A stretch of DNA of 59,526 nucleotides, the filler included, from Sluysia triapertura (Eukaryota), in assembly GCA_046118255.1 (NCBI GenBank). It is 4 parts of 4 records of this genome, joined end to end, with 100 filler letters (N's around TTAATTAATTAA, not from the genome) between each part and the next. Parts side by side here need not be neighbours in the genome. Positions count along the whole stretch, not along the records: positions 30,695 to 42,532 come from JBJNIA010165147.1; 3 more parts are not named here. One strand, given 5' to 3'. How positions within the stretch are numbered: position 1 is the stretch's first letter; each line of letters opens with the position of its first letter. The notes beneath the pieces are model-generated. The model was given only the letters and a program-made list of their open reading frames with translations, searched no databases and was not told the DNA's origin. The position numbers and the translations under genes were made by a program. This document shows, one piece after another, positions 10,480 to 55,646 of this stretch.

Positions 10480-11250
10480 TTTGAGTCTCTGATCATCTTT
10501 TATTTCCCCTGGGAAAATACGTATTTCTTGATGATGGGGAAATGCTAGAGGTTTTTGTAAAAAATTATTTTCCTTCAATAAAAATATAAACCAAGTATCA
10601 ATTATTTTTTATTCACCGAGAATGTCAGATTCCGTTCCTTCTGATTCCGTTACAGATGTAGGAACAATTTCATTCTGAACCAGAATTAAAAACTTGGATC
10701 CAACTTTCGGGTCCTTTCCAAAGTTTAGCTCCTCGAAAGCACCGACTGCGAATCTGGCAATGATTCACATAGGTTGGATAGTATTTTGTTCGCAGAAAGT
10801 GGAACATTTTAAACTAACTTTTTGCATTTCTGATCTTAGCTTTATAAAATGGTCTCCCGTTGATAAATCGCTTATATTTTGCACGAAATCGTGGTTAGCA
10901 TCCATAATAATAATAATAATCCCAAGAAACGCGTTGAATTCGACATAATCCAGTGTTTGTATATCTCCGTTCATATGTCGGTTAGTGCAGCAAACAATAT
11001 TTTTAACCATTGACACTCTCATAAATTTGCCAAATGATTCAATAATTGACTCGCATCTTCCTTCTCATGGCATTTTGTCTATATCTTCTGCAGTATTGTC
11101 AGTCTGATTTCGCTATTACCAGATCGCTTACCATTTTATCCTTATTGTTTATCTTCATCATTGTCTGTCTGAATTCATATCAATTTCATTTTCTTTGTTT
11201 ATATCGTCTTAACTGTAGCCAATTATATCCTCATCCATATTGTGGAATAA
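10480..11250 (-). mobile_element. Degraded piggyBac-family transposase
   Basis: Minus-strand fragments ESFGKFMRVSMVKNIVCCTN, EFNAFLGIIIIM, DSQSV-FRG (cf. DEQLVPFRG), PKVGSKF (cf. PAKYGIKF) and SYICNG lie in piggyBac order, with frameshifts and deletions. Confidence 0.75.
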
Positions 11251-14839: not shown

Positions 14840-14939
14840 NNNNNNNNNNNNNNNNNNNNNNNNNNNNNNNNNNNNNNNNNNNNTTAATTAATTAANNNNN
14901 NNNNNNNNNNNNNNNNNNNNNNNNNNNNNNNNNNNNNNN
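14840..14939. other. Artificial scaffold-joining spacer (44 N + TTAATTAATTAA + 44 N)
   Basis: 100-bp spacer with a six-frame-stop linker, identical at three sites. Confidence 0.97.
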
Positions 14940-18209: not shown

Positions 18210-19443
18210 TAGACAAACTATACTAATGTATAAAGAAGTCAAAAACCGTCGAGAAATTTCAGATCTTATTTATTCATTTAATTTTGTTTCTGCCAAAGAA
18301 ATAATATTTCTTAATCAACAATTTAGATATCAACCTACTATTTTCCGAAAGTTTAGTAGACACAGATTGGTTTAGATCAGCAATTTTGGACAATCATAGA
18401 AGATATAACTCTCAAAGATATCTGGGATTTCCTGCACGATGATAGTAATCCAATTACAAATATTGTTTACAGTACAATCTGTATTTGGCACGTCATTCAT
18501 AAATCAACATTAAATTGTTATGTTGAATCCTTATAACCTGATATGAAAATTTTGAATTGTCTTTATCCTAAAAATTCACTGCCAATATATCGTGTAATGT
18601 TTGAAACTTTTGGTAAATTACTAAAATCAACTAAGAATGTGCATTTTAAACTGATTACAGCATCACTTTTAATAAATTATCACTTTTGATAATTCAGATG
18701 TGTTAAAATTATCTGGCTTAGATATAGTACCAAATAATTTAATTCACCTCAACGTAGATGTGAGTAAAATCTATGTTAGACCATTTGAAGACCTTAGTGA
18801 TGATGAGTATAGTTTATCTCTAAGTACACAGATTCTTGTCAACACTATGGCAGATGTAAATGATTATATTTCGGAATTTAAGTCTGTATCACAGAATTAT
18901 GATACATCAGAGAGTAAAGTGAATAACGAGAATCTTTCTCACAGTCCTTACTATAAATTATGCGAAAATAACACGCAATTAGAAAGTAATTCTCCTAGTG
19001 AATTGTGCCTTTATCATAATACAATTAAAAGTGTACCAACTTCTAATCGGCGTGTCGGAATGGCATTATGTCCATATGGAAGCGACTTTAATGGTACTTA
19101 TGCAAGATCTTCAAGCAGTTGTCCACATTCATATTTACATCATGCTAACTTGGATCATCTATCCAGACTCACAGATTTAATGCTATCGCTTAACATTCCT
19201 ATCCAACCGAACAATATCAACTTTTGTGACAATTCAAACGTAAATTTTATTTATTTTTATTATAATGATAATTTAACTATTGATTTTGGTTTAGGTAAGG
19301 AAATAAGGACGACTGACAACAAAGAAGACATTAGTTATACATGTTATATTGATAATTTAGTGATTTTTATGTTCAAAACTTTTAATTTTTTTAGATTTCA
19401 CATCATTAAATCAAAATTTGTTAATAAAGTATATACATTTTGA
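18210..19443 (+). pseudogene. Unclassified intronless gene-like fossil: 247-codon open frame (18700-19443) preceded by disrupted frames
   Basis: An ORF this long is unlikely by chance at this AT content. Upstream fragments (WTIIEDITLKDIWDFLHDD..., IITFDNSDVLKLSG) run into it across stops and frameshifts. No family recognised. Confidence 0.5.
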
Positions 19444-29283: not shown

Positions 29284-29616
29284 CTCTTAGTGTTTTCATG
29301 TGAGTAACTGCCATTCTTAAAATAGTTAATTTATCTGGTTTTCTTGCTAAAGAACTACATGTCGGTACCATGTCGCATAATTCACTAATATAAGCCGTCA
29401 TTTTATTGCGTCTTCGGCGTTCAATTTCACAATGACTTTCTCGGGCATATCGTTCTTTATCTATTTGTTCTTGGTCTTTGTCATTCACATTTCCATCTGG
29501 ACTGATATCATCACTGTTGATTTAATTATTAAAATCATTAAAATAAATTGAAATTACTCCGGTTCACTCAATAGATCTGTTTCGCGCATGTAATCTGACC
29601 TTGAATGATGATCCAT
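29284..29616 (-). CDS. ARNT: ARNT/tango bHLH-PAS transcription factor, exons 1-2 (29616-29558 and 29513-29284), partial
   Basis: [60 protein letters not shown] is near-identical to the ARNT/tango bHLH. A 44-nt GT-AG intron (29514-29557) joins it in frame to [15 protein letters not shown] exons not found in this scaffold. Confidence 0.95.
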
Positions 29617-30594: not shown

Positions 30595-30694
30595 NNNNNN
30601 NNNNNNNNNNNNNNNNNNNNNNNNNNNNNNNNNNNNNNTTAATTAATTAANNNNNNNNNNNNNNNNNNNNNNNNNNNNNNNNNNNNNNNNNNNN
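30595..30694. other. Artificial scaffold-joining spacer
   Basis: 44 N + TTAATTAATTAA + 44 N. Confidence 0.97.
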
Positions 30695-30978
30695 TGTGAC
30701 TTGTTTGATGGAGTGTTTGATGAGTGAATGTTGTTTTATGAGTTGATTATGTAGTGTTTATGGTTAAAAAATGTGGTTGTTTAAATAAGGTTTATTTTAA
30801 TCTTACGTTATAGGGTTGACCACTACATAAGTAATAACGGTTTGTTACTTTGAAACAACTTTATGAGACAAAATGTGCTTTATCTAATACAATACCTTCT
30901 CGTAAGACTTAAACAGTTCCTGTTTGAAAAATAAATATAATTTTAAAATTCGAACACCAAACATTGTTTAAAACGAAC

Positions 30979-32375
30979 CTACATCCTTTAAAAGCTTTAA
31001 CATTATTATCTTTGTTTGTACTAAATTTAACATCGTCATCTCCATAGAAACCATTACCACCAATGCCACTTAATCCACCGTAATCACTATTATCATTATC
31101 ATTCTTATGGTCACCAACTTCATTACCGGCATCAACGATATGGTCATTTTTATCCGTATTATCTTTGCTTTTTGCAAATTTCATTTCTTGTAAATTTGAT
31201 ATATCTACACGACCTGTTTGAATAACTTCTCGTAACAAAGCAAGCCAATAATATAATTCTTGTTCACCTCGTGATTGAAGTATACATAGTAACTAAATAC
31301 ACAACACATTTATTATTAACAAAACATACTGTATCTTCAAGATCATTTCGTAATCTAGCATCTTGTTCTAGATCCAATAATTGAAATAGACAACCAATTA
31401 AACCATGACTGAGAAAAGCCGCTCGTAAAACCGCTGCATTGGTTTTATTGATAGACGAAGAATCAACAAATTTCGTGGTTGTCATTACTGTACTAGTACC
31501 AGCTGACGATGTAGGTTGTATGGCATTGTTTGATTCAGAAAAACCTTCTTCATTCAATGAAGTTGTTAAAATTTGAGTCATTTCTTCATAACTTTCTTTT
31601 TGAGCCAATTGACGAAGACAGGACACAACTGCTCGACGTTGTAAAAGGTGACAACTGCTAAGACCATAATAAAGTTGACAAACTAACGATGAAAGATTGA
31701 TTTGTCTGAAATTAATAAAAAAATAAAGTTAAACTAGCACAGCTGAACGGTTAGACGATGCATTTATAATGTATTTTAAAGATTAAAAAATAGTCTAAAA
31801 AATTCTCATTAAAACATATAGAAAATGTTAAAAATTTATGAAGATGAGTAGAGAATAGTAGACATTGCAGATAATATTAAAATAATTAAACAGATGACAA
31901 AGTAGAGAGACAGTAATATGCATTACTATGCACAAAAATCGATAGTTTACAATTCATTTATATTAAGAAACATTTGTAAAGAAAAACATGACGAAAAACT
32001 AAACATACTTCGCTGCAAACATATGCATTTGTTGTAAGCACGAAATAGCTTCGGCTTGTACTAAAGGATCCGGATTTTCTTGCAATAAAGCACAACTGAC
32101 CACACAAACAGCGCCCATTTCTTGTAACTGAGTATCGTTTGTAGTAGTTGCGATAGTAACAGCTAGTTCTGGTCCTAAGGTGGTTACTAATGCACCTAAA
32201 AGTCGACCAAGACATCGATGAATTGCAGCTCCACGTGCTGGAGATGTTTGTAGAAGAAGTTTTAATACAAGACCTAAAGTTAATTCCAAATAATCTCGTC
32301 GAAATGTCGGTCCTCCGGAATCAGCCACAAGAGCCAAAGCGTGTAAAGCCCACACCTGTACAGCATCAGATTCTT
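30979..32375 (-). CDS. HEATR5B: HEAT repeat-containing protein 5 (HEATR5A/B, Laa1-like), three internal exons (32375-32009, 31705-31330, 31292-30979)
   Basis: VQVWALHALALVADSGGP, CLGRLLGALVTTLGPEL, LVQAEAISCLQQMHMFA, INLSSLV and HLLQRRAVVSCLRQLAQKE match HEATR5. GT-AG introns of 303 and 37 nt preserve frame. Confidence 0.92.
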
Positions 32376-32973
32376 CTGTGTTTTATGAAAAATAAATTAA
32401 TAAAACAATTTTTTATTTGAAAATTTCAATTTTTGAATCACATTTTTTATAAAATAAATATTTTCTAAATTCATTTGTAGATCTACAAAAACATTACGAT
32501 TGTAAATAAATGTTTACATTTTATTTTTCTCGGATCCCTCTTTTCAAAGGACACTGAAAACATATCATAGACTAATTCAACATTGATGTTTGGTGCCAAC
32601 AACAACAACAACAACATTTAATAATCTGAAAAATCAAAAGCAAAATCAAATCTAGATGACAAATAAACTTAATCTACATTTGAAATTTCCGTTTTCCTTT
32701 TTAAAGTCTGTGCGGTTTAGCAATAAAATATTTCAAAGGCAAAATTTCCTTCTGAAGAATATTTGTAGTTATTTTTCGTATTTTTACGTTTACTGATAAA
32801 TAGTGATGCATAAACATCAAGCATTTTCTGACACACAAAAATTAACTATTAACACATTTACGGACACACTAATTGTTTGATTGATTAATATCGGTTTTAC
32901 TTTAGTAATGCTAAATATAATATTTTTAGTATTTGAATGTAATTATCTGTACTAATTATATATATATGTGAAC

Positions 32974-33058
<85 letters not shown>

Positions 33059-33067
33059 CTAAATTAT

Positions 33068-33720
33068 GTGGATGACAACACTGATATTAGAGGAGCAAGA
33101 GGTAATAGAAATTCCTCAGAGGGTAATAATTCTAATAATAACAATGGTAATAACTTTCGAGGAAACAATAGAAGGAATACAAATAATTTTTCAGTAAGAA
33201 ATAATACAGGTAGAAGCATGAGAGGATTTGTAAGAGAACAAATGAATAATCAAATGTTTTTTGCCAAATCCATTAAAATGTCACTTAAAGTCCAATACTG
33301 TGCCAAATCCAACACAAACATTAAATTTTTTGCTTAATATATTAATACCTGATTCTGTTCGATTGGTTATCTTATTACTTCCTTTATTGTAAAAACAAAA
33401 TTTTTGAAAACAAAATGTTTGAAAAATGGTTCATTTGAGAATAAGAACCTTAAAACATTTTTCATTAGAAAATTGGGCGTGAAAAATAGAAAATTAATTA
33501 AATAATGGAAAGCGAAATTAAATTCATTATTTTTATGTATGTTAACAGTATTGCTGATTGTTATTTTAATGTGAGAAATAATGTAAGTAAAAATAGACTG
33601 AGTAGAGTAAAAGGAAATGATAGTTTTGTACCTAATAAAGTTTGACAGACCGTACCATGTAATTGTCAAAGTTGTTATTGTCGGTTTGATTCTCAAAAAG
33701 GTTAGGATGATTTGTGTGAG
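33068..33720 (+). mobile_element. Possible gag-like relic (R/G/N-rich ORF followed by Cys-containing fragments)
   Basis: RG/N-rich low-complexity frame and a downstream SIADCYFN resembling the end of a zinc knuckle. Weak. Confidence 0.25.
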
Positions 33721-34458
33721 CGTTTGGCTGCGAGATTGCAAATTGATTGGATAATGAGAGTATAAAATAATGATTTCTAAATTTTTAACACAAATGAATA
33801 ACATTAATACAGTCATACGTTATTTTTATTATTTATATATATTATATATTATTTTTAAAAACGATTAGCTCTCATTCTGTCATTCATCATTGCCTTACTT
33901 TCATCCGTATACTCTCATACTTCATACATTTTCACTCTCTTATACTTATACCCCACTATTAACCAGACTATATTATATGTAAAGAAAACTGTACGCACAA
34001 AATCCTCGTATTCAAGGAATTTTCTCATCCCGTTACATTTTGTTAAATCTCTTTCATTAGAAACTGAAATTTATTTTAAAAGTATCTAAATAAAGTCAAA
34101 ACATTTAAAAAATAAATAAATGATTTAATAAATAATAGATTCTCAAGTAAGCATCTGTTACTATGTACAATATACAATAACTCTTATTTTATTAACGTTT
34201 TTTTCTATTGTTATAAAGTCAGAAATATTTAAAAACACCAGGATACAAATCTGTCATATTTATCACATCAGACAATCCCCAGTATCAATCTGGAAATATT
34301 TACTTTTTAATTAATTGATTGATAATAACTTTTATGATACTAAAATAACTTCCGTATTTAACATGCATTACTTTTCTAACTTGCTTGTGAAACCAAATGA
34401 TTTTGACGTATTCTAAATGTAGTAGTGAAAAAAACAGCGCGAGAGATAAATACATAAA

Positions 34459-35469
34459 TTAAATTGCCGTGATGGTGTAACTGTGTTTATTATTATACAA
34501 AGTAAAACATGAGAACAAATAATATAAAATTCGTTGAATCCGTTTTCTCCAATGTCGTTCAAGAATATTTCTTTCAACATATGAGTCAAATGTGAATGAT
34601 TCCAATGAAGATCTGATTTTAGCGTTTGGATATAATTTTAATAATAATTGATCTAGTTTTAAGTGACATTTAGAACTACAGAGATAACCTCGTAAATGAA
34701 CGCATTTACAGTTTTTTAATCTTGTGAATCGAATTTCCAAGTTTTGATGTGGTTGGCATGAAGTTAAACATACCGTACATTTATTTTGATCACTATTCAC
34801 AATAAATTCAAAATATTTTATCAAAGATTTAACGGGAAATTCGGTATAAAACGACGTCTCTAGAAGATAATTTATCAAGTAACATCTGGCTGCTAACAGC
34901 GTCAATAATTCTGGATTATTTAAATTGTTTGTAGGACTAGAATTTTGTGAATGCAAACTATATGCTGGATGCAGTATCCCATGAGAATTCTTCGGATATT
35001 GTTTACATTGATTACAAATTGGTCTTACACGGCGAAGAAACATCAATTGTATCGTTGGCATAAGAGCAAGAAATATAGGAAAATTGATAATACTATTACA
35101 ATCGAAATGAAATGTTTCCAAATTATGTAAAAATCTGATTGATAATGGTACATGAGTCAAAGAATTACACTGAATAATACTAAGAACACATAATTTATCA
35201 ATTTTCATAATATTTGGTGGAAGATGAGCTAAATTAGGTAAATTATGGAGAAATAATTGTTTTAATTTCATTGAATCACAAATTAAAAATAAATCTTCTT
35301 CTGTGAAAGTAAAGATATCCGCTATCCGTAATAATTGAATTGTTTGGAAGCAACAACGGTCATTTCTAATATTAGAATGCCATTCACAAAGTTGAGTGCC
35401 AAAAAAGTTATTCAACTCCCAAAAATTGTTTTCATCGTTTTCATTGTTTGACATTTTTTTATTAAGCAT
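34459..35469 (-). CDS. Intronless LRR protein with BC-box-like motif and Cys-rich C-terminus (LRRC58/LRRC28-like putative Cullin-RING substrate receptor)
   Basis: 336-aa intact ORF with LRRs (LKQLFLHNLPNLAHLPPNI, LTHVPLSIRFLHNLETF), PELLTLLAARC (cf. PSLLELAAR) and CTVC...VHLRGYLCSSKC (cf. LRRC58 LPLMHYLCSPEC). Confidence 0.8.
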   Translation of the reverse strand: MLNKKMSNNENDENNFWELNNFFGTQLCEWHSNIRNDRCCFQTIQLLRIADIFTFTEEDLFLICDSMKLKQLFLHNLPNLAHLPPNIMKIDKLCVLSIIQCNSLTHVPLSIRFLHNLETFHFDCNSIINFPIFLALMPTIQLMFLRRVRPICNQCKQYPKNSHGILHPAYSLHSQNSSPTNNLNNPELLTLLAARCYLINYLLETSFYTEFPVKSLIKYFEFIVNSDQNKCTVCLTSCQPHQNLEIRFTRLKNCKCVHLRGYLCSSKCHLKLDQLLLKLYPNAKIRSSLESFTFDSYVERNILERHWRKRIQRILYYLFSCFTLYNNKHSYTITAI

Positions 35470-36283
35470 TTAATTGTATTTTCAAATACAGAATCATTGA
35501 TTTATAAAACTCTCTGTAGTTACTGTGTGTATTTTCTATTATAGACACACATGGTTTTACAGTCATTCGCTTAATAGAAAATTATTTTTATCGATTTAGT
35601 ACTGTTATGCTAGTTTTTAAATTTAAATTAATTTTTTATATCTATTATATAGATTAATCTCTTTATCAGTAATAAATCAATGTGAAAATAAAAATTATTT
35701 ATACTTGTTTTAATAAGCACGTAAAATTAGTAATTATAAATTTTATACTGGGATACAATCATTTTAAATAAAATTAATAAAATTAGTATGTAGATAATTT
35801 GAATTTTCGCTTATTTAAATATATTTGTCAGTATTAAGTATTATATTATCTTAAAATTACATTTCATTGAATTATTTGAATAAATGAGTTATTGGAACTC
35901 TTTTACATTAAAAATAATTCAACGACTATTTTATCTTACTATGCCTCTTAGAATTAATTTTTATAATTAACTTTTGTTTTAATCATCCAAATTGTAATAA
36001 AACTTAACAATTTCCATGCACCAGAAAAAATTTACCAATATAAAAATATTTTAATTAAAAGTTTAATTAATAATATAATTTACAAACAAGATTATTTTTT
36101 ATTTTAAATAATTTTACGAAGTTTTTTTTATGATTGAAAGATATTTAATGTTATATATTATTCAATTTATATATTTTACTTTTAGCAGCATTAACATTAT
36201 TTTTAAATTTTGAGTTTCTGACATTTATGAGAGTAATTCTTTGTGTTTATCATTAACGAGTAGCAATTTTAGATCATATATGA
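35470..36283. promoter_or_regulatory. Candidate bidirectional promoter between the divergent LRR gene and SNAPIN
   Basis: 814-bp AT-rich interval between head-to-head start codons, no recognisable TE. Position-based inference only. Confidence 0.4.
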
Positions 36284-36881
36284 ATGTCTGAAACCATTTT
36301 AGAAATTAATACAAACGAACTTGACATCAAACAGCACATTTCATCAAGCATATTACAATTATTAAAACCAAGTATAATCAAAACTGATCAAAAAGTAGAA
36401 GAAGTAAGAAATAGTCAAATTGAATTGCGAAAAGAAGTTGAATTATTAGCAAAAAGTTTAATTTTATTTAAATGAGATTATGCATTATAGATTTAGTAGA
36501 CATTAACGAAAATCTTGCAGTTCCTATTAATATTGACCCATATTTAAAGAAATTAAATAATTGTAAACGGAGACTAACTTTAATTAATAATATTTTACAT
36601 AATTCACAGGTTTGTTAATAAACATTACTTGAGAGAAATTTATTGAAAATTTTACAATTTAGTAGCATTATGCACATTATAATAGTTTTTGTTTATTTGT
36701 GCTTTTATATATCGTGCAAATTATTTAATTGAATAATAAATAATAGATTTATAAAATATGTGCTGTCAAATATATTTTTGAGTACGTATTTATTATTAAG
36801 GAACGTTTAACGAAACTTCGTGCCAATATTTCAAAAGAATCTAAAAGACGCATTTTAAGTGAAGAAAATCAAACAATATAA
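36284..36881 (+). CDS. SNAPIN: SNAPIN (BLOC-1/BORC subunit), complete, three exons (36284-36455, 36491-36609, 36801-36881), 123 aa
   Basis: Spliced product ...VRNSQIELRKEVELLAKNLVDINENLAVPINIDPYLKKLNNCKRRLTLINNILHNSQERLTKLRANISKESKRR... aligns with human SNAPIN (VRESQVELREQI...LDPYVKKLLNARRRVVLVNNILQNAQERLRRL). GT-AG introns of 35 and 191 nt. Confidence 0.93.
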
Positions 36882-37225
36882 TGAGCAGTGTAATTCAATT
36901 TTTAATCGGGATAGATTTGTCTCATTTATCATTATCTGATGCTGAAATTCCTTTCGAATTAATGAAACGCTTAGATTGGTTAAAGTTAACTAATGCAGGT
37001 TTAACTGAAATACCGAAGAATTTGTGCCAGTTGAATAAATTACAGAAATTAATAATGACTAAAAATTCGATTAATTCATTGACAGGAAATTGGTTTGACG
37101 CTTTGACAGAGTTGCGTTATTTGAATTTGCGAGATAATTGTCTTGTTAGTTCAATGATTCCCAATCAATTATTCATGAACGATACTTTACAAATTTTGGA
37201 TTTGAGTTGCAATCAATTAACAGAG
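36881..37225 (+). CDS. FLII: Flightless-I (LRR-gelsolin protein) first coding exon, 115 codons
   Basis: MSSVIQFLIGIDLS...LDWLKLTNAGLTEIP...LQILDLSCNQLTE aligns from the first residues with the FLII N-terminus (GVLPFVRGVDLS...LRWLKLNRTGL...LSVLDLSHNQLTE). Donor GT at 37226. Later exons not seen. Confidence 0.82.
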
Positions 37226-37496
37226 GTTTGTTTCTATTTTATCTAAATTAATTATGTTTTTATATCGTGTTTTTGCTGTTTTTATATGCTTAAATTTATA
37301 GTAGTTCTATTTTTTCGATGAAATTAATACTTCAGTATAATGAAAAATAAAGTTTCTAAATGAAGAATTTATTTTGAGTATGAATAGTAAAAGTAAAATC
37401 TACACTTATTGTTCAAACTGATTGATTATTGGTAATCCTTCGTTTTACGCTAAAAATAAACTAAACCCGGAAAAATTTTTACCAAAATTAAATACT

Positions 37497-38900
37497 TTAT
37501 GATAATTCATTGAAAAAGTAAATGCCTAATCCAGCGCAGTAAGTTAAAAATGCGCTTAAAAAGTGATAAAACAAATTATCCGAAAATTCAATGCTTTGAC
37601 TTAATGTTAGTCCAACAAAAGGATCATTAGAATCAAGAAAACTAATTAAATTGACTGGAGTTTCAATAATTACTTTTATTTCTTGTTCACAATAATTGAG
37701 ATGCGAATGTCGACACTTTTTGACTATACCGATTAGTGCCACGTTTCACCACTCCAAGTATTATGTGGCTATCACGGTATTGACTCGGTTATATTTTCGA
37801 TATGAGAAAATAATGTTAAACCATTTAAAAATAATTTCCAATAAAATTAAATCAAACTGAAGGTCTGCCATTTTCGTTTGCTTCAAAAATAAATCGTAAG
37901 AAGTCTGAAATCAATAGATAAATATTTGCTAAAATTTATTTAAGAATAAAACAAAAATAAATGGTTGAAAATAGGGAATGGGACTTACACTTGATTAGCA
38001 AATATAGTAGACTGCATATTAAATGGAATGAAAAACATGTTCTTAGCAAGCATAAACAAATCCAAACTAACACACAGCCACTAAATGAAAGTATATGAAT
38101 ATACAAAAACGACCAAACCAATATTTTAGAAGTTGGCCCTATGAAAAATCATTAGCTACATAATTAAAATTAACTGTAGAAAAGTTATAACATGGAATTC
38201 AATAATTTATTGGTCAAAATATAATGTCAGTGGAAAATATTGTTAAAAGTGGGTTTTCTACTGGTATTTACACAAAAATTATACTTAAAAAAATATTTTT
38301 AAACGAAGAAACAGTGTTATTTTATGAAGAAATCAAATTTGTTAAAGATATCTGCGAAATAATTGAAAGATAATATCAACTTAATTTTTTGACTTTGTGG
38401 AAATTTGGGAATATCACTTTTACTCGATCGGGGAAATTATTTTACTAGGATGGTACTTTAAATAAATACAAATTAATTAATAAAATAAAAGCAATAAAGT
38501 TATTGCAATCTAAACCATTATAAATTTAAAGTAATAAATGAAATAATAAATTATTATACATATATAAACCTTGATTCGTCATTTTCGACAACTACTGACC
38601 CACTTATCTGAATAGGGTAATTAATTTACAAGAAAGATCACACAAATAATTATACCAGTTTGCTAGGCGACTCAGGAAATTTCACGTTTTTCATTATCAC
38701 GCTTATTTGACAGATGCACTACCAATATATCTATTATGAGCAACAACCCCAAGTCTTGTCTCGCAGCAGTCTTGACTATTTTGAAGCAGTCCGAAATGAA
38801 GTCGAGAAGTATAATTTTGCAGATGAATGTTTGATGAAATAAATAGTTTAATTTAGAGATGTTCCAGGTGTGACCATTTCTTATAAATTTTATTTTTTAC
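37497..38900 (-). mobile_element. Degraded Merlin (IS1016/ISXO2-like) transposase split by a ~760-bp insertion
   Basis: NWYNYLCD and QISGSVVVENDESRF (~38565-38665), then RKYNR, ILGVVKRGT and VN..SFLDSNDP...SQSIE (~37590-37800). These follow the Merlin order VEIDESKF-KRKYNRG-WVFGGIERGT-TQSIE. Confidence 0.7.
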
Positions 38901-39129
38901 GACCGCAAGACGAATAATCGCCTCATCATTGATAAGTTTTTGTTGGTAAATTGATTATTTGGCAATTTTATTCTTTATGAAACTATTGCACATGGTCATA
39001 AAAATTCTTTAGCAAAATTTGTAAAATTTGAAATAATTTTAAAATTAGAAATTTTTAATACTAAATACTTGAATCAATTTCTGTCTACTACTACCAATAA
39101 TAAGTAAACAGTAATTTATTTAAAATATA

Positions 39130-39335
39130 ACATTTTCCCATATTCCAATTGATTATTCTGAAGCGAACCAATTACAAAACAAATATTTAATAGTATCGAA
39201 AAAGTTGAAATCTTCTGAAAGGCTATATAAATGGTAACATGTTGGAGCAATATCTGGTGAATACGGCAATTGATTTAACCGGAAACCGTTTGGCTGTTTC
39301 TGAGAAAAACATTGCTACATCTTTAGGGCGGGCTT
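39130..39335 (-). mobile_element. Mariner transposase fragment
   Basis: PYSPDIAPTCYHL (cf. YSPDLAPSDYHLF) at ~39228-39266. Confidence 0.8.
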
Positions 39336-55515: not shown

Positions 55516-55646
55516 NNNNNNNNNNNNNNNNNNNNNNNNNNNNNNNNNNNNNNNNNNNNNNNNNNNNNNNNNNNNNNNNNNNNNNNNNNNNNNNNNNNNN
55601 NNNNNNNNNNNNNNNNNNNNNNNNNNNNNNNNNNNNNNNNNNNNNN
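55516..55646. other. Intra-scaffold assembly gap (131 N, no linker)
   Basis: Plain N run. Confidence 0.95.

Follow-up and report, generated by a model that had tools for sequence, protein, structure and literature searches.

The Snapin gene of Drosophila shares a dicistronic mRNA with HemK2 (CG9960), and its cistron comes first (10.1101/2024.01.29.576963; PMC2276209; PMC12444909); the pair is classed as all-dicistronic, with 18 nucleotides (nt) from stop to start (PMC4528330), and the fly Snapin and stoned loci are described as AUG-poor, with weak Kozak contexts, and as dependent on leaky scanning (PMC11892635, which cites Wall 2005). Weak first starts and AUG depletion also mark the bicistrons of green algae (PMC11892635). 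Two other routes to a second protein are relevant here: flatworms have operons resolved by spliced leader (SL) trans-splicing, which often takes place at cis-splice acceptors (PMC12582326; PMC5832876; PMC8629364), and viral termination-reinitiation needs a structured element that pairs with rRNA (PMC10275272). In this study, we analyzed a 59,526-nt stretch of the Sluysia triapertura genome (GCA_046118255.1, hereafter the window), where a predicted SNAPIN gene's stop codon and the start codon of flightless-I (FLII) have one A in common, and we propose, at a little better than an even chance, that both proteins are made from one spliced dicistronic mRNA by leaky scanning.

The closest counterpart is Drosophila Snapin-HemK2, where a small, AUG-poor SNAPIN cistron with a weak start likewise stands first and an unrelated gene follows right after its stop. 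The two differ in the partner, which here is FLII (about 1250 amino acids (aa), with many introns expected) and not a methyltransferase; in the spacing, which is −1 and not +18 nt; and in the host, probably a flatworm and so probably from a group with SL trans-splicing; for this locus a single mRNA and scanning are inferred. With the green-algal bicistrons and Drosophila stoned A/B, the locus shares a weak start of the first open reading frame (ORF), a stronger start of the second, and AUG depletion before the latter; however, those systems have a short inter-ORF spacer and were demonstrated by long reads and mutation, whereas SNAPIN and FLII overlap and form a candidate bicistron. In Schistosoma mansoni, FLII (Smp_165930) also lies downstream of, and nearly touches, its neighbor Smp_165920 (15 bp between version-5 gene models, which may be imprecise), but that upstream RhoGEF gene is too large to scan through, and cistrons in that species are split by SL addition with a spacer kept. 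The five-base UAAUG is the same overlap as in influenza B M1/BM2, the calicivirus termination upstream ribosomal binding site (TURBS) systems, CHV1, and SART1 (PMC10275272); unlike these, the SNAPIN-FLII junction has no TURBS-like motif or structure that we could find, and both ORFs are conserved cellular genes. Finally, the lack of intercistronic DNA is reminiscent of the SL1-type operons of C. elegans and the zero-spacer operons of Ciona (PMC12582326), except that in those a poly(A) site abuts the SL acceptor, whereas here the coding sequences themselves overlap.

An initial reading of the DNA (the sequence-only reading) had held that such coupling is not expected between unrelated conserved animal genes. 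This was overstated: FlyBase lists 159 dicistronic pairs, Snapin among them, and at the loci classed as all-polycistronic the stop-to-start distances range from −34 to 319 nt (PMC4528330), so that overlap between unrelated animal genes is uncommon but known. What is new is the phylum, the partner gene, and the one-base overlap; the general mechanism is already known, with a direct precedent in flies. Our literature search found no report of a SNAPIN-FLII pair or of flatworm dicistrons read by leaky scanning, although the operon tables of PMC12582326, which lay outside that search, may bear on it; the word Snapin was absent from the searched supplements of PMC5832876 and PMC7653826, the latter searched in part.

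The SNAPIN-FLII junction

The junction consists of the pentamer TAATG at 36879–36883 on the plus strand, in which TAA (36879–36881) ends SNAPIN and ATG (36881–36883) begins FLII, a same-strand stop-to-start distance of −1. All coordinates that the sequence-only reading had given for this one-base overlap were borne out, as was its view that there is no spacer and that some unusual mechanism is required. Because the coding sequences overlap, the untranslated regions (UTRs) of the two genes must sit in each other's coding DNA. The pentamer itself is only modestly unlikely; since TA or TG precedes 21% of ATGs in such AT-rich DNA, it need not have been selected.

SNAPIN is predicted to have three exons that encode 123 aa and end at the TAA of the junction (36284–36455, 36491–36609, and 36801–36881). 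Exon 1 matched the Pfam Snapin family (PF14712) over profile positions 3–40 (E = 4.4e-7, 30.7 bits, cut-off 29.6), and exon 2 over positions 46–82 of 89 (E = 1.1e-6, 29.4–29.8 bits); taken together, they cover positions 3–82 and identify a Snapin/Pallidin domain. Exon 3 (26 aa) alone had no match in Pfam or PDB and stays a model, supported by a donor and an acceptor that are both in phase 0, by an open frame, and by the seven profile positions missing from exons 1 and 2; its product may resemble the last helix of the SNAPIN family. The TAA is reached equally from acceptors 36746, 36782, and 36800, while three later acceptors cut SNAPIN to 97–103 aa and acceptor 36864 moves it to another frame. 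None of the three exons had a SNAPIN match in PDB, and a search with exon 1 yielded no homologue among 19 candidates.

The first coding exon of FLII (36881–37225) is intact from its ATG to a GT donor at 37226. A profile of 39 FLII-type proteins matched it over positions 4–119 (E = 2.5e-30). In a full HMMER scan, residues 3–118 of P0170, an unnamed protein of 337 aa, matched the exon with 48% identity, and P0170 as a query in turn retrieved named Flightless-1 proteins. When 346 stored proteins were ranked by single-segment score, the top 70 were P0170 and 69 gelsolin-bearing FLII-type proteins, all matched at their N-termini; the FLII-type rows in this ranking came from the search with P0170. 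In the exon alignment, 14 invariant columns are kept across 18 aligned rows. Direct searches gave generic leucine-rich repeat (LRR) hits: a word search with the exon returned 79 generic LRR proteins, none of them named FLII, comparisons with PDB and Atlas returned only generic LRR matches or clusters, and a metagenome scan returned a single unrelated LRR match (L001, 36%). The FLII frame is shut upstream by TGA at 36860–36862, as had been observed before, so that 36881 is the first possible FLII start unless an upstream exon exists; the AG of ttttaag, ending at 36859, is also present as described.

Among the 3299 six-frame ORFs of the window, no further FLII exon, with the remaining LRRs or the gelsolin domains of that gene, was detected, and the best profile match aside from the FLII exon (E = 0.015) was the neighboring LRR gene. 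Because the contig that carries the pair (30695–42532, between N gaps) ends 5.3 kb beyond the exon, and because other genes in the window likewise show only some of their exons, a long first intron is the simplest reading of the absent exon 2.

The sequence at the junction is unique: the 15-mers and 21-mers that start within 36840–36899 do not recur anywhere in the window, and no repeat family of the window lies over the junction; a repeat-driven misjoin was rejected on these grounds. In addition, sequencing run X1 contains 103 of 103 sampled 31-mers of 36200–37300, introns included, although this run is possibly the source sample and hence not independent. Misassembly, which had been raised as an observation that could overturn the gene pair, is thus unlikely.

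The host group was examined by phylogenetic analysis of the FLII exon. In a first tree, built from 38 of the 41 aligned rows after one duplicate and two N-truncated rows had been dropped, the exon grouped with P0170 (support 97/93), and the two were sister to the FLII proteins of trematodes and cestodes, that is, of neodermatans (99/97). This grouping stayed (99/95) in a reduced tree without 14 rows, among them P0170, two long-branched sponge sequences, and near-duplicates, and a nematode grouping was rejected (p-AU 0.002). Both trees held FLII-type rows only and about 115 columns of one gene. Because the alignment is this short and the branch of the window exon is long (1.09–1.18), we call the host no more than a probable flatworm.

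An ATG-free SNAPIN message and proposed leaky scanning

In the predicted spliced message, 368 nt separate the start of SNAPIN from that of FLII and contain no ATG in any frame, where about 6–9 are expected, and the first ATG after SNAPIN's own start is that of FLII. Seven further coding stretches of the window served as controls; over their 3144 nt they hold 79 ATGs, and the longest run free of ATG is 148 nt. The probability of finding no ATG in 368 nt is 0.0001 at the control density, 0.0008 from the two low-GC controls, and 0.0012, 0.0036, and 0.014 by base, dinucleotide, and codon-order shuffling, respectively. Of the triplets that are missing, ATG has the highest expected count (5.7); the seven others are each expected fewer than two times. 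Exons 1 and 2, considered without the modeled exon 3 (288 nt), are also free of ATG (P = 0.0007–0.018). Codon choice follows the same pattern: among the 14 Asn codons, the sole two that precede a G are the sole two AAC codons (Fisher P = 0.011), and the control exons have AAT and AAC at 54:13. Since introns 1 and 2 carry two ATGs each, the depletion is a feature of the spliced RNA. The start contexts differ as well; SNAPIN has T at both −3 and +4, a weak context, and is overlapped by an upstream ATG at 36280, while FLII has the stronger A at −3. The locus thus combines sequence hallmarks of leaky scanning, namely a first ORF without internal AUGs, a weak first start, and a stronger second start.

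From these observed features (the one-base overlap, the corridor without ATGs, the two start contexts, weak for SNAPIN and stronger for FLII, and a 3-codon upstream ORF (uORF) over the SNAPIN start), we lean towards a model in which SNAPIN and FLII are expressed from one mRNA. One promoter upstream of SNAPIN, perhaps common to the head-to-head LRR gene, would give one message spliced across both genes. Some ribosomes would initiate at SNAPIN, and those that miss its weak start would scan the ATG-free corridor and initiate at FLII, the first ATG they meet. Ribosomes that translate the uORF, skip the SNAPIN start, and resume scanning may provide an extra share of FLII. The TAATG would then be a by-product: because scanning needs no spacer, the free tail of SNAPIN could extend as far as the first base of FLII. 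Scanning does not exclude SL addition, and both could take place: a spliced leader may be added at the head of the message as its cap and leave the two genes joined. A candidate leader site lies just upstream of SNAPIN (Table 1). If an AUG-ending leader were added after 36272 (36273–36302), the message would have three AUGs, one in each frame, at or before the SNAPIN start, and the two short ORFs of that case (10 and 3 codons) both end within SNAPIN exon 1. The sequence-only reading had proposed a dicistronic mRNA with reinitiation and had missed the absence of ATGs; the single mRNA remains the best reading, but the ATG-free SNAPIN, its weak start, and the lack of a restart motif or structure favor leaky scanning over reinitiation.

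Several points weigh against this model. With the protein held fixed, just two sites could form an ATG, and under synonymous recoding of the same protein the probability of none in 368 nt rises to 0.04; the codon bias is weaker when all 21 NAY codons are included (Fisher P = 0.071). ATG-free windows of 368 nt make up 1.5% and 1.9% of the two strands of the window (168/11452 and 214/11451), and 4/5560 and 143/5531 of those matched for G. The depletion was spotted by eye before it was tested, and the SNAPIN family may be poor in Met. The start-context rule is a general eukaryotic one and not species-specific, with one other start in the window (−3 A) as a control. Nonsense-mediated decay could act on the message if FLII introns lie downstream of the SNAPIN stop. 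The remainder of FLII lies outside the window, and in Schistosoma a spliced leader is added to FLII, there a downstream cistron, which favors SL resolution by descent.

Alternative explanations

The main rival is an operon resolved by SL trans-splicing, which we regard as a serious possibility but, on balance, an improbable one. One pre-mRNA would yield one of two mutually exclusive products: a SNAPIN mRNA with a 3′ UTR that extends into FLII, or an FLII mRNA that takes its cap at 36801 (the intron 2 acceptor) or at 36860 and has SNAPIN exon 3 for a 5′ UTR. The neodermatan affinity of the FLII exon (in both trees), the flatworm habit of trans-splicing at cis acceptors, and the U-rich end of intron 2 (55% T) are in keeping with such an operon, as is the record of FLII in other flatworms. 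S. mansoni Smp_165930 (flightless-I) is listed as a downstream cistron 15 bp after Smp_165920 (Dbl RhoGEF), with an SL count of 36.5 versus 14396.5 on the upstream model (PMC5832876 Table S3); since the counts are 400-fold higher on Smp_165920, the upstream gene may have been assigned the main leader site of FLII, or resolution of FLII may be poor. In H. microstoma, the FLII model HmN_003029520 sits in a Dbl homology (DH)-domain orthogroup (PMC7653826), as a fused model would. FLII thus has a past as a downstream gene, though behind a different partner; in these parasitic flatworms it follows a Dbl RhoGEF or, in the gene model, is fused to a DH-domain gene. The upstream partner in schistosomes is a different gene from SNAPIN.

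The geometry of the locus speaks against this operon. With a distance of −1, the pair falls within the limit of 300 bp between same-strand genes by which SL operons are recognized (PMC12582326), but there is no spacer ahead of an acceptor for the second gene. Because the coding sequences overlap, any acceptor must be upstream of the SNAPIN stop, and the spacer of at least 5 bp seen in 45 of the 45 S. mansoni pairs analyzed (PMC12582326) is impossible here. The flatworm SL ends in AUG (PMC9851317); added at 36801, it would open a uORF of 27 codons whose end falls on the FLII start, and added at 36860 it would give an AUG followed by a stop. None of the nine AGs in 36741–36894 would place the SL AUG in the open FLII frame, and the 36859 site is preceded by just 30% T. 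An FLII mRNA that begins at exon 3 does not need exons 1 and 2 to be free of ATG, and their lack of ATGs is left unexplained. SL trans-splicing, which the sequence-only reading had put forward, stays in contention through the flatworm grouping and the schistosome precedent while failing to account for the ATG-free exons.

The same reading had suggested that an AATAAA at 37034–37039 could end the SNAPIN mRNA. The hexamer is present, but we give it no weight: it occurs once per 244 nt on this strand, so that one is expected in the 345-nt FLII exon.

A promoter of FLII's own in SNAPIN intron 2 or exon 3, with two mRNAs that merely overlap, is very unlikely. Intron 2 is much longer than intron 1 (191 versus 35 nt), and both S. 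mansoni and Drosophila are known to have promoters within introns and alternative transcripts that are monocistronic; yet this proposal, also made earlier, fails to explain the ATG-free exons 1 and 2, and intron 2 itself has two ATGs.

Termination-reinitiation, in which ribosomes that end SNAPIN translation at UAA would begin again on the AUG that it overlaps, by analogy with influenza B, caliciviruses, the hypovirus CHV1, and the retrotransposon SART1, has even slimmer prospects. In its favor, the locus has the exact UAAUG of those systems, its stop and start lie well within the about 20 nt that reinitiation allows (PMC10275272), and an absence of competing AUGs near the stop would help here too. 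However, the pentamer has the 21% background noted above, the ATG depletion extends 370 nt upstream, beyond what reinitiation needs, and a weak SNAPIN start would lower, not raise, FLII. The core of TURBS that pairs with 18S rRNA is UGGGA. TGGGA, GGGA, and TGGG are all absent from spliced SNAPIN, and 36801–36920 folds at −8.9 kcal/mol (z = +1.91), with 199 of 200 shuffles folding at least as well; a TURBS element was rejected on both counts.

We likewise see very little prospect that the LRR exon represents a piece of FLII, orphaned or decaying, or arose from a contig misjoin, with SNAPIN an ordinary gene whose 3′ UTR runs over it. No second FLII exon is found within 22 kb downstream, the branch is long (1.09–1.18), and the direct searches named no FLII (0/79 matches, generic LRR clusters in Atlas). 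Against these stand the intact exon with its 14 invariant columns, the partial exon sets of other genes in the window and the nearby contig end, and the unique junction present in run X1; moreover, a fragment would leave the ATG-free SNAPIN unexplained. A SNAPIN-FLII fusion protein made by splicing or by −1 frameshifting (the latter being the last of the mechanisms offered earlier) has a negligible chance: relative to SNAPIN, FLII is in the −1 frame, which is open over the 18 nt ahead of the FLII ATG, and five AGs within the FLII exon would hold frame from SNAPIN exon 2, but the last 90 nt of SNAPIN contain no X XXY YYZ slippery heptamer, the junction has no stable structure, and the in-frame splices would remove conserved FLII residues.

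Table 1. Features of the SNAPIN-FLII locus (positions in the window)
Feature	Position	Strand	Basis
TTTTAG acceptor-like site 11 nt before the SNAPIN start; candidate spliced-leader site for the message head	36267..36272	+	Sequence
3-codon uORF that overlaps the SNAPIN start in another frame; its ATG context is weak (−3 T)	36280..36291	+	Sequence
SNAPIN coding exon 1; weak start (−3 T, +4 T), no internal ATG	36284..36455	+	Pfam PF14712
SNAPIN intron 1, 35 nt, GT-AG; two ATGs lost by splicing	36456..36490	+	Splice model
SNAPIN coding exon 2; no ATG	36491..36609	+	Pfam PF14712 positions 46–82
SNAPIN intron 2, 191 nt, GT-AG, two ATGs; acceptor a candidate SL site, or promoter region, in rival models	36610..36800	+	
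SNAPIN coding exon 3 (predicted), 26 aa and TAA; directly upstream of the FLII start	36801..36881	+	Open frame, splice sites
AG ending at 36859 inside SNAPIN exon 3, then TGA (36860–36862) closing the FLII frame	36851..36862	+	Sequence
TAATG, SNAPIN stop over FLII start by one base; FLII start −3 A	36879..36883	+	Sequence
FLII first coding exon, 115 aa, N-terminal leucine-rich repeats	36881..37225	+	48% identity to P0170; FLII profile; ranking; trees
AATAAA in the FLII exon; chance level, not counted as a signal	37034..37039	+	Hexamer frequency
FLII intron 1, from GT donor to contig end; exon 2 not found in the window	37226..42532	+	Profile search

Neighboring genes and biological meaning

On the minus strand, at 34462–35454, lies an intronless LRR gene of 331 aa (its Atlas neighbors are LRRC28/58/69-like), which is head-to-head with SNAPIN, with 830 nt between the two starts; this interval is a candidate bidirectional promoter. 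Internal exons of a HEAT-repeat gene, possibly HEATR5-like, occupy 30990–32373 on the minus strand, with a weak Pfam HEAT match and none in PDB; its upstream exons were not seen in the contig. Provided that the contig is correct, one intron of this gene encloses the LRR gene together with the antisense head of the SNAPIN-FLII pair. Elsewhere in the window are an ARNT basic helix-loop-helix exon (29285–29518, minus strand, PDB E = 1.6e-29), an open frame of 255 aa without a Pfam match (18676–19443, plus strand), which served as one of the coding controls, and a transposase-like fragment (10768–11061, minus strand, DDE_Tnp_1_7, E = 1.8e-4, below cut-off). Rfam gave no match in the window. The window is a chain of contigs of about 12–16 kb, and gene order across the gaps is unsure; the gaps are at 14840–14939, 30595–30694, 42533–42632, and 55516–55646, three of them of 100 nt with a 12-nt core of stops in six frames and one of 131 nt.

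A bolder reading, which we consider decidedly unlikely, is that SNAPIN is a portable ATG-free leader cistron that takes unrelated partners across phyla (HemK2 in flies, FLII here), that FLII shifted from an SL-resolved place behind a RhoGEF gene to a translationally resolved one, and that the UAAUG is a selected coupling that restarts translation without TURBS. If true, it would be a case of viral-type stop-start coupling between two conserved cellular genes of an animal.

Leaky scanning on one mRNA, the model we lean towards, has consequences of its own. Close gene pairs of flatworms are treated as operons cut by the SL, and this locus suggests a second route, in which one mRNA is read twice by scanning. 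An ATG-free first ORF together with a weak start provides a sequence test that is usable on any flatworm genome. Gene finders would drop or fuse SNAPIN at such a locus, and RNA interference against either gene would hit both, as has been noted for fly Snapin-HemK2. A second phylum would then have SNAPIN, joined to a new partner, at the head of a message for two genes, which would point either to convergence or to an old leader cistron that has been swapping partners.

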